In this document: positions 42,315 through 44,114 of the stretch, one piece after another
How the letters are laid out: each line of letters begins with the position of its first letter
Position numbering within the stretch: position 1 is the stretch's first letter
Virus record (IMG/VR): IMGVR_UViG_3300037511_000359
Strand: one strand, 5' to 3'
DNA length: 64,000 nt
From: a virus
Notes under the pieces: generated by a model
Database searches by the model: none
What the model saw: the letters and a program-made list of their open reading frames with translations, nothing else
What the model was told of the DNA's origin: nothing
Position numbers and translations under genes: made by a program

Positions 42315-42947
42315 GTGAGCGAGGAGACGAGGATGAGCAGGCGAACCGAGCGGATGAGCATCGCGATGGACGGGCGCGGCATGGTCGTGCCGTGGCACGA
42401 GGCGGAATCTCACTTGCGCGCGCGTCGCGTCGTTGCGCATCCAATGGCTGAGGTTCTGCGATGCGATGTCGGACGTGACGAAGCGCGCGGACCGTTCGGC
42501 TCGACCGTCGTCAGCCTCACCGTCGAACTCGGCGACGAGCACCTTCCGGACGTCGACCGAGGAGTCGGCGATGCGGGCGGCGCACGCGATCGAGCAATCG
42601 CGTATGCGGCGCGCGAGCTGACGAAGCAAGGCGACCCGCAGGCCGTTATCGAAGCGCTGCTTCGGCACTACGTTGCGTGTCCTGAGGACCTCGGTCGCGC
42701 GCTGCGGCACGACCCGGGCAGCGTGATCTCGACCGAGTTGCGCGACCGCATCGCGCGTTCGTTCGGTCTGGTCGAGCCGGCGTTGCCGAAGTGGGTCGTC
42801 GAGGGCGCGCTGGTGAAGTGCGATGCGTGGGGGCGCGAGGAGCACGCGACGGTCGCGCGCGTCGATGCGCACGGCGTGTCGTTCGTCGGTGAGAACGCGC
42901 CGCTGCCGGCGGGTGTGTTCCTGGTAATGGGCTGGGGCCCGGCGTGA
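42315..42947 (+). CDS. hypothetical protein
   Basis: 210-aa ORF after an AT-rich intergenic patch. Confidence 0.6.
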   Translation: MSEETRMSRRTERMSIAMDGRGMVVPWHEAESHLRARRVVAHPMAEVLRCDVGRDEARGPFGSTVVSLTVELGDEHLPDVDRGVGDAGGARDRAIAYAARELTKQGDPQAVIEALLRHYVACPEDLGRALRHDPGSVISTELRDRIARSFGLVEPALPKWVVEGALVKCDAWGREEHATVARVDAHGVSFVGENAPLPAGVFLVMGWGPA

Positions 42948-43504
42948 CCACCGCGCCCTGGCACGCCCCACCGCACGCGTACGCGGGCGTCGGCTCGCGC
43001 GACTGCCCCACCGACATCCTCGACATCATGCGCCGCATCGCAGCCGCGCTCGCGCGTCTCGGTTGGGCGATGCGGTCAGGTGGCGCTCCGGGCGCCGACA
43101 GCGCGTTCGAGGCGGGCGCACGCGAGGCCGGCGGTCGCATCGGGCTGTACCTGCCGTGGCGCGGATTCGAGGGGCGCACGCGCGACGTCGTACTGCACGA
43201 GGCGACGGCGCGCGCGTGGGAGATGGCGCCGCGGTTCCACCCGGGCTGGGACCGCCTCGGTCGCGGCGCGCGGGCGCTGTACGCGCGGAACGTGCATCAG
43301 GTACTTGGGGCGACGTGCGACAACCCCGTGTCGTTCGTCGTGTGCTGGACACGCGAGGGCGCGGCGACCGCGGCAGAGACCGTCGGGCATCGAGGCGGGA
43401 CGCTGACCGCGATCCGTGTCGCCGACTGGGCCAGCGTCGCTGTGTACAATCTGCGGCGCGACAACCATCGCGCGATGTGGACTTCGATGCTTGACGCCGC
43501 TTGA
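42944..43504 (+). CDS. SLOG-superfamily (DprA/Smf/YspA-like) protein
   Basis: YAGVGSRDCP, RSGGAPGADSAFEAGA, LYLPW, ARNVHQVLG, GGTLTAIRVA motifs. Confidence 0.8.
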   Translation: MTTAPWHAPPHAYAGVGSRDCPTDILDIMRRIAAALARLGWAMRSGGAPGADSAFEAGAREAGGRIGLYLPWRGFEGRTRDVVLHEATARAWEMAPRFHPGWDRLGRGARALYARNVHQVLGATCDNPVSFVVCWTREGAATAAETVGHRGGTLTAIRVADWASVAVYNLRRDNHRAMWTSMLDAA

Positions 43505-43518
43505 TGTGCGGCTATCGT
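43491..43518 (+). promoter_or_regulatory. promoter with no downstream start codon
   Basis: TTGACG-N16-TATCGT, same geometry as the other accessory-region promoters. Confidence 0.6.
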
Positions 43519-43524
43519 TACAGC

Positions 43525-43772
43525 ATAAGCTCGGCGTACACCGAGCGGCCGGCTCTGTACGGAGCGCGCGCCAGACCTGGGCCAGAAGCTTGGGCATGCC
43601 GGTGGAAGTCCGGCGCTCTTGAATGTGGCCGGTTCGAGTCCGGCAGTCGCGAGTACCGGTGGCAGGCTCGTTTCCTGCCGATGGCGAGAGGGGCGTGGGC
43701 CCAGTCACTTGGAGGCCGGGAAGAGTGATCAGCGTAGGGCTCGGCGGGCGACCTCCGGGCCCTACGTTTTTT
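43525..43772 (+). ncRNA. candidate structured non-coding RNA with two tandem T-loop-like hairpins
   Basis: Own promoter; hairpins at 43529-46, 43552-65, GCCGG-TGGAAGT-CCGGC (43598-614), GCCGG-TTCGAGT-CCGGC (43628-644), 43661-79; ends in an intrinsic terminator; no convincing ORF. Confidence 0.5.
43732..43772 (+). terminator. Rho-independent terminator
   Basis: CGTAGGGC...GCCCTACG stem followed by TTTTTT; lies between convergent units. Confidence 0.8.
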
Positions 43773-43781
43773 CTTACCCCA

Positions 43782-44030
43782 CTACAGTTCCTCGTCCGGC
43801 GTGTTGTTGACGCGCCGCGCGCGCTCCGCGTCCTCGAGCTCCTCGTCCGCGATGTGTCCTGCGACGAGCCGGCTGTACACATTGCCGTCGCGCGTGTACC
43901 CGCAGCGCGCTTCGACACGCTCGCGTGTCTCCGCGCACCATCCTGCACGGTCGTTTCGCAGGAACCCGCGGCGGCGCATGTGCGCGAGGAGGTCGGCGTC
44001 CTTCACTGCGTCGAGTTTGGTGTCGATCAT
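43782..44030 (-). CDS. hypothetical protein
   Basis: GGAG RBS; only clear minus-strand gene of the accessory region; has its own promoter. Confidence 0.65.
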   Translation of the reverse strand: MIDTKLDAVKDADLLAHMRRRGFLRNDRAGWCAETRERVEARCGYTRDGNVYSRLVAGHIADEELEDAERARRVNNTPDEEL

Positions 44031-44086
44031 GGTTCTCCGTAGCGGCTCGTCGCGGCGCGCGACGGCGAACGCTCTCCCACGCTAGC

Positions 44087-44114
44087 ACAGTAACACATGG
44101 CGAGCGCAGGTCAA
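44087..44114 (-). promoter_or_regulatory. promoter, class C leader
   Basis: TTGACC-N16(ending TGTGT)-TACTGT followed by GCTAGCGTGGGAGAGCG. Confidence 0.65.

Follow-up and report, generated by a model that had tools for sequence, protein, structure and literature searches.

The evidence supports positions 43491-43772 of the window (the whole 64,000-nucleotide stretch analysed, a portion of a tailed-phage genome with about 67% G+C) as the stand-alone gene of an uncatalogued non-coding phage RNA, distinct from a canonical tRNA. By sequence comparison, its segment 43529-43614 is homologous to an uncatalogued phage RNA motif composed of complementary loops and a T-loop hairpin. Rfam 15 and the papers open to search contain no description of either the RNA or the motif. 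We consider this structural account probably correct.

The gene is bounded by a promoter and a terminator:
43491-43518, plus strand: sigma-70-type phage promoter (-35 at 43491-43496, 16-nt spacer, -10 at 43513-43518)
43732-43772, plus strand: intrinsic terminator (z -5.4 against shuffles, pair probability about 1.0, six T)

Seventeen sites on the plus strand of the window have this promoter geometry, against 0.14 expected per strand, and the RNA promoter is the only one of the 17 without an ATG or GTG in the following 12 nt. The first-pass annotation, made from the letters of the DNA, had described a promoter of standard geometry with no start codon and an intrinsic terminator, and both were borne out. 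The sister promoters drive leaderless ATGs, with the start codon mostly 6-7 nt past the -10 element, and therefore transcription of the RNA probably starts at about 43525-43527. Host RNA polymerase would then make an RNA of 248 nt. The terminator is absent from the list of a simple terminator scan and is the only part that folds far better than its shuffles. Its 5' strand (43737-43746) contains 8 nt that also occur in the 5' strand of the first hairpin, P1 (43527-43536), and given this repeat the 3' strand of P1 might in principle pair with the terminator.

A 75-codon open reading frame (43501-43728) overlaps the RNA and starts upstream of the predicted transcription start. Its codon score is -0.10 per codon versus +0.13 to +0.28 in trusted genes, its GC3 is 0.69 versus 0.80-0.90, and a Pfam search of it gave no match. 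Coding by this frame was rejected on its non-genic codon use.

Between the promoter and the terminator, the following elements were recognized:
43529-43546, plus strand: hairpin P1, 6 bp, pair probability 0.83-0.94; its loop 43535-43540 is kissing loop 1
43547-43572, plus strand: arm P2, closed by GGC/GCC, probability 0.8-1.0; its loop 43556-43561 is kissing loop 2
43573-43597, plus strand: junction AGA, stem P3 (43576-43594, CC...GG with several G-U pairs) and junction CAU
43598-43614, plus strand: arm 1 (P4), the T-loop hairpin of the shared domain, matched by the model of the relatives and showing a compensatory stem change in Jeremy
43628-43644, plus strand: arm 2, a canonical tRNA T-arm that lacks an acceptor, a D arm and an anticodon arm
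43655-43730, plus strand: two more hairpins (core 43661-43679 and about 43704-43729), from folding only

The four 5' hairpins prevail over the first 96 nt (P 0.94-1.0). In the equilibrium ensemble of the full-length RNA, the two arms pair mainly with each other (hairpin P=0.15 for arm 1 and 0.0 for arm 2), and forcing both to form costs 3 kcal/mol. The folding of the body (43525-43730) equals that of shuffles (z -0.22), and the hairpins at 43655-43730, for which no homologs were found, have a z of +0.34 against shuffles.

The sole outside match to the window RNA lay in a spacer without annotation in Pseudomonas phage Dolphis (E 0.09), which led to phage Jeremy (E 1e-25); a pattern led to the IMG/VR phage L133. 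The three relatives have in common a motif of about 150 nt, whose counterpart in the window is a domain of about 90 nt:
L089:1905-2056 (Dolphis), L130:682-835 (Jeremy) and L133:690-842: full-length motif, with a covarying 7-bp loop-loop pairing and long invariant unpaired stretches

The domain opens with a 5' hairpin and another arm, whose loops are complementary to each other, and continues through AGA, a stem and CAU to the T-loop hairpin. The GCC-AGA-CC...GG-CAW-T-loop hairpin of the relatives is present in the window; the GGC/GCC helix of P2 is invariant in the three relatives, and the junction letters correspond to invariant columns of Dolphis, Jeremy and L133, with CAA for CAU in L133. 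A covariance model built from the three relatives alone, whose E-values are rough, placed 43572-43614 at the top of the 64 kb with 24.5 bits, the next match having 14.3. The match is partly selected, because Dolphis was found with the window as query and L133 with a window-derived pattern, and three relatives are all that carry the domain. The letters common to the window and the relatives are also invariant in Jeremy. An invariant A-rich internal loop in the P2 arm of the relatives is absent from the window, and the window RNA is therefore a shortened variant rather than a full member. The relatives' motif had no match in Rfam, and the full-length form appears to be a better candidate for a ribozyme or a ligand-binding RNA than the window RNA.

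The homolog collection and covariation test proposed in the first-pass annotation thus gave partial relatives of the 5' domain, among which P3 and P4 covary, and no full-length homolog, so that the comparative evidence is confined to the 5' domain. Double-T-loop patterns returned 88 IMG/VR stretches and 5 JGI metagenome stretches, none resembling an RNA with both arms. The core pattern had 14 matches in GTDB genomes, mostly coding and read as chance. Searches of 201 genomes of one order and, with the model, of five genomes gave no match, the plasmids and E. coli genomes searched gave nothing significant, and no new member emerged when patterns for the motif's 5' half were used.

Upon folding, the loops of P1 and P2 are predicted to interact. 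In all three relatives, the 5' hairpin loop contains 7 nt that pair with the loop of the GGC/GCC arm, and Dolphis shows a compensatory change. At the identical topological position, the P1 loop of the window is the exact reverse complement of the P2 loop, a feature missing from the first-pass annotation. Of 5,000 shuffles of the first 96 nt, one reproduced such complementarity between hairpin loops, as did one of 2,500 shuffles of the body; the kissing duplex has 6 bp and -5.6 kcal/mol. The loop sequences are unlike those of the relatives yet remain complementary, which argues for selection on pairing. P1 and P2 also share four letters at their start and end, which leaves an inverted duplication as a possible origin of the complementarity. 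The extended hairpin (-35.0 kcal/mol) is less stable by 5.8 kcal/mol than the two open hairpins (-40.8 kcal/mol).

Pairing of the loops between molecules, to form dimers or rings, would make the RNA comparable to phi29 pRNA, ROOL and GOLLD, which are likewise phage-associated structured RNAs using kissing loops (10.1101/2024.12.08.627333). P1 abuts P2 without a linker and the lengths differ, which may strain an intramolecular kiss, and it is intermolecular kissing loops that build the ROOL and GOLLD cages (10.1101/2024.12.08.627333). However, the complementarity fits intra- and intermolecular pairing alike, with a duplex of just the 6 bp given above, and GOLLD and ROOL are far larger than the window RNA and have no sequence or model match to it. 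We regard oligomerization as very improbable.

The two near-identical T-loop arms noticed in the first-pass annotation were located at 43598-43614 and 43628-43644, spaced by 13 nt. None of 20,000 dinucleotide shuffles of the RNA contained two such hairpins, and 0.9% contained one; the presence of both arms is not due to chance. Comparison with the relatives indicates that they are not a conserved pair, and that arm 1 belongs to the larger shared domain and is not a tRNA T-arm. Dolphis has no T-arm before its terminator, and Jeremy and L133 have one about 130 nt downstream, within a separate tRNA-shaped RNA with an aberrant anticodon arm. On the simplest reading, arm 2 would be a remnant of the tRNA-shaped module that follows the motif in the relatives. 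Jeremy (L130:640-1160) and Dolphis (L089:1690-2100) share a promoter and a terminator and hold different RNA modules; the tRNA-shaped module is missing in Dolphis, and the break lies at a short direct repeat.

The proposed checks with ARAGORN and Rfam found no tRNA or tmRNA in the element and no Rfam (15) match at the gathering score; the tRNA model (RF00005) was not listed at E up to 10. The likeness to tRNA lies in arm 2. In the search for its acceptor strand, the best partner inside the transcript paired at 5 of 7 positions and the sole 7/7 partner was in the promoter spacer, and no CCA, D arm or anticodon arm for it occurs within the transcript. The lack of these parts and of an acceptor stem ruled out tRNA identity, as the first-pass annotation had concluded for a canonical tRNA. 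Pairing of the flanks of arm 2 is at chance level versus shuffles (51%). A 12-bp acceptor-T minihelix around arm 2 was rejected, since shuffled flanks pair equally well, and so were cloverleafs folded around either of the two arms or the third hairpin.

It had also been proposed that the two arms jointly bind tRNA elbows, or mimic tRNA and decoy tRNA-targeting defences. The interdigitated T-loops of RNase P, T-box RNAs and the L1 stalk are built from internal or junction loops rather than from two short hairpins side by side. A pair of T-loops 13 nt apart that exceeds chance, a perfect T-arm in arm 2 and the tRNA-shaped RNAs without a normal anticodon arm in the relatives are consistent with such a role. 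However, the arm pair is not conserved in Dolphis, Jeremy and L133, and arm 1 sits in a larger domain, which removes the main support for a tandem-T-loop tRNA binder. In the published cases, phages escape tRNA nucleases by means of complete tRNAs (PMC11555353, PMC12409363), in which anticodon and stems are both required (PMC11555353), and AriB is reported to contact the anticodon or D arm of tRNA (PMC12409363), neither of which is present here. A tRNA decoy is therefore improbable: of the earlier suggestion of a novel phage non-coding RNA or tRNA mimic, the stand-alone uncatalogued RNA stands and the mimic or decoy is unsupported.

Among the other loci collected, many phage tRNA-like genes have an anticodon-arm insert ending in a T-loop hairpin (L005, L009, L011, L017, L018, L019, L020, L022, L033, L035, L039, L041); some resemble tRNA introns and others have no anticodon. 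Further hairpin-rich intergenic RNAs, several with T-loop hairpins, were seen in L157, L164, L119:1000-1100, L188, L201 and L203, with no Rfam match where tested.

The best weak Rfam match of the window RNA was twister-sister (RF02681), with 16.3 bits and an E of 1.6 against a gathering cut-off of 34. The twister-sister fold is organized by a T-loop that holds an intercalated A (10.1101/2020.11.26.399451). Both RNAs have a multi-helix junction and a 5-bp hairpin with a near-identical 7-nt T-loop preceded by a short variable stem; the T-loop hairpin P4 was aligned, and the order of P2, junction, P3, junction and T-loop hairpin is similar. Taken with the long invariant unpaired stretches retained by the relatives, this likeness could point to a ribozyme akin to twister-sister that separates RNA cassettes by self-cleavage. 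However, the score is half of the cut-off, and the catalytic internal loop L1 of twister-sister (between its P1 and P2) is unmatched on either side; the window RNA also differs in having a kissing-loop pair. In addition, the RNA has a promoter and a terminator to itself, so cutting would be superfluous. Self-cleavage accordingly has a slim chance of being the function. The permuted tmRNA, cobalamin riboswitch and FMN riboswitch were also rejected, as they share only the T-loop hairpin and had no Rfam match.

The T-loop core itself is portable. A 20-nt pattern (junction and T-loop hairpin) that did not ask for the stem pulled 28 distinct contexts among the collected loci, 22 of which contain the GA-CC/GG-CAW-T-loop core. 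The partner strand lies downstream (GUGA then CC, 4-7 bp) in 15 of the 28 contexts and upstream in 7, the window included. As read from these arrangements, one T-loop core occurs in two circular permutations, and the window form is permuted relative to the following leaders:
L178, L180-L186, L190-L192, L194, L195, L197-L200, L202 and L204: phage leader RNAs with the unpermuted core

An alignment of 12 leaders shows 94% pairing in the closing helix and double changes at 5 of 7 pairs. The variable arm of the leaders has a complementary site of 9-15 nt upstream, at the next start codon or in both places, a layout like that of C4 of phage P1 (PMC5320573). One further core, at L189:5050-5110, lies between what a frame reading suggests are hicA and hicB genes, and this match may be partly coding.

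C4 of phage P1 is a small phage RNA with three stem-loops and variable pairing loops, which RNase P cuts from longer transcripts (PMC5320573). The window RNA resembles C4 (P1/P7, RF01695) and c4-2 (RF02944) in being a small phage RNA whose core recurs in leaders of c4 logic. By analogy with these leaders and with the RNase P cutting of C4 RNAs (PMC5320573), the T-loop core could offer a variable arm for pairing with an mRNA from the phage itself, its host or a competing element. However, the longest complement of the RNA in the window is 12 nt, equal to the shuffle median, so that no external target appears there, and the matching loop is within the RNA itself. No gene lies downstream in the transcription unit, and the core is circularly permuted relative to the leaders. 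The C4 and c4-2 models had no match in the window or five related records, the c4-2 search having been run without a positive control. An antisense regulator is thus another improbable reading, about on a par with the tRNA decoy.

YrlA (RF02553) is also carried by phages and likewise has a T-arm that is not part of a canonical cloverleaf. Its stem-loops follow the order T, acceptor-like (AS) and D (PMC4201824), whereas the window RNA has no acceptor-like stem-loop and no D-arm after its T-arm. The YrlA model found no match in the window at E up to 10, with phiCbK as positive control at 29.7 bits, and no Ro60/TROVE gene, expected within 4 kb of a YrlA RNA, is present among the predicted proteins of the window; the longest contig recorded for a neighbouring protein measures 81.6 kb, and the 17.5 kb of it outside the window lie far from the RNA. 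The control match is in itself an unannotated YrlA-like RNA between two tRNA-Met genes of Caulobacter phage phiCbK (L131:398-465).

The RNA gene sits in a variable region of a high-GC tailed phage, and the surrounding features are as follows:
42944-43504, plus strand: SLOG/DprA-like gene upstream of the RNA (Pfam DNA_processg_A, E 2.9e-6, under the curated cut-off)
43481-44040, no strand: 560-bp lineage-specific insertion in the last codons of the SLOG/DprA-like gene, carrying the RNA gene and an inverted 82-aa open reading frame
43782-44030, minus strand: 82-aa gene with genic codon use, convergent with the RNA

Identity to the relatives ends at 43480 and restarts at 44041-44052 in four loci (L093, L097, L123, L124). 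The RNA is absent from nine loci of related phages, and nhmmer found no match to it across 86 kb of relatives; the flanking DNA is 65-91% identical in the eight aligned loci and the Sorangium locus, and L205 was added to the set. The final codons of the SLOG/DprA-like gene are now supplied by the inserted promoter region: the ancestral C-terminus is kept in 16 of the 16 closest homologs, and the window differs from every one. These comparisons indicate that the RNA gene arrived by recent insertion. Homologs of the 82-aa gene (60-66%) occur in L123-L126, which do not have the RNA, and therefore the 82-aa gene is not an obligate partner of it. The orientation of the 82-aa gene is reversed in L123 and L124. 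A leftward promoter-like site at 44087-44114 on the minus strand aims into the 3' end of the SLOG gene in the relatives and drives the inserted 82-aa gene in the window.

The window also contains genes for a helicase, the terminase large subunit, the portal and a head protease, and the terminase matches only an enrichment-culture virus, at 32%. A Logan contig has gene spacing identical to the window, which is a weak argument against misassembly because it possibly comes from the same sample. The nearest named relative of the upstream SLOG protein is on a contig of Sorangium sp. So ce118 (L098, 56%), a faint hint that the host might be a myxobacterium.

An RNA in a single lineage may also be a decaying or neutral passenger, that is, a scrambled remnant of a larger RNA array (a shortened motif plus half a tRNA) that arrived together with a promoter and terminator and has no present function. 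The loss of the relatives' invariant internal loop, the several G-U pairs of P3, the missing tRNA body around arm 2 and the body z of -0.22 agree with this, and decay of the RNA is possible. However, promoter, terminator, both kissing loops, junctions and T-loops are all intact, and the shortened P1 and P2 loops differ from those of the relatives but remain complementary. We consider a passenger unlikely, though it carries more weight than the other alternatives.

As decoding, cis antisense pairing and twister-sister chemistry failed their tests, we rank first a self-contained, swappable RNA cassette that would act in trans through its compact fold, by shape, on a host protein. We favour this reading tentatively, at somewhat less than even confidence. 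In the proposed mechanism, host RNA polymerase would transcribe the RNA early, and the 5' domain would fold first, as it is made. The P1 and P2 loops would kiss and the T-loop would capture a junction adenosine as in twister-sister, resulting in a compact, nuclease-resistant body. The lone T-arm, as a piece of the tRNA-shaped RNA of the relatives, may serve as a trimming or stability handle or be a relic, and host tRNA-processing enzymes might trim the RNA beside arm 2. The folded RNA would then bind a host protein in phage-host conflict, rather than act by decoding, antisense pairing or self-cleavage; this protein-binding role is plausible but doubtful. The singleton lineage, the restriction of the domain to three partial relatives, the missing A-rich internal loop, the possible origin of the loop complementarity by inverted duplication and the predicted mispairing of the arms at full length speak against the trans-acting cassette. 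There is also a small chance that the RNA is the minimal form of a new phage RNA class, in which a portable T-loop core serves as antisense scaffold in certain phages and as kissing-loop-locked particle in others; here it would self-assemble or fold compactly and present T-arms that neutralize a host protein recognizing tRNA.

Phage RNA arrays hold many folded RNAs without a known job. The RNA described here is small, has its own promoter and terminator and occupies a clean presence/absence site, so it can be tested alone, and at 96 nt its natural minimal version lends itself to probing and structural studies. One T-loop core links three uncatalogued groups, namely the kissing-loop motif of Pseudomonas phages, the c4-like leaders and the window RNA. 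If the window RNA proves to be a relic, the motif of its relatives would still be a covariation-supported, uncatalogued RNA.
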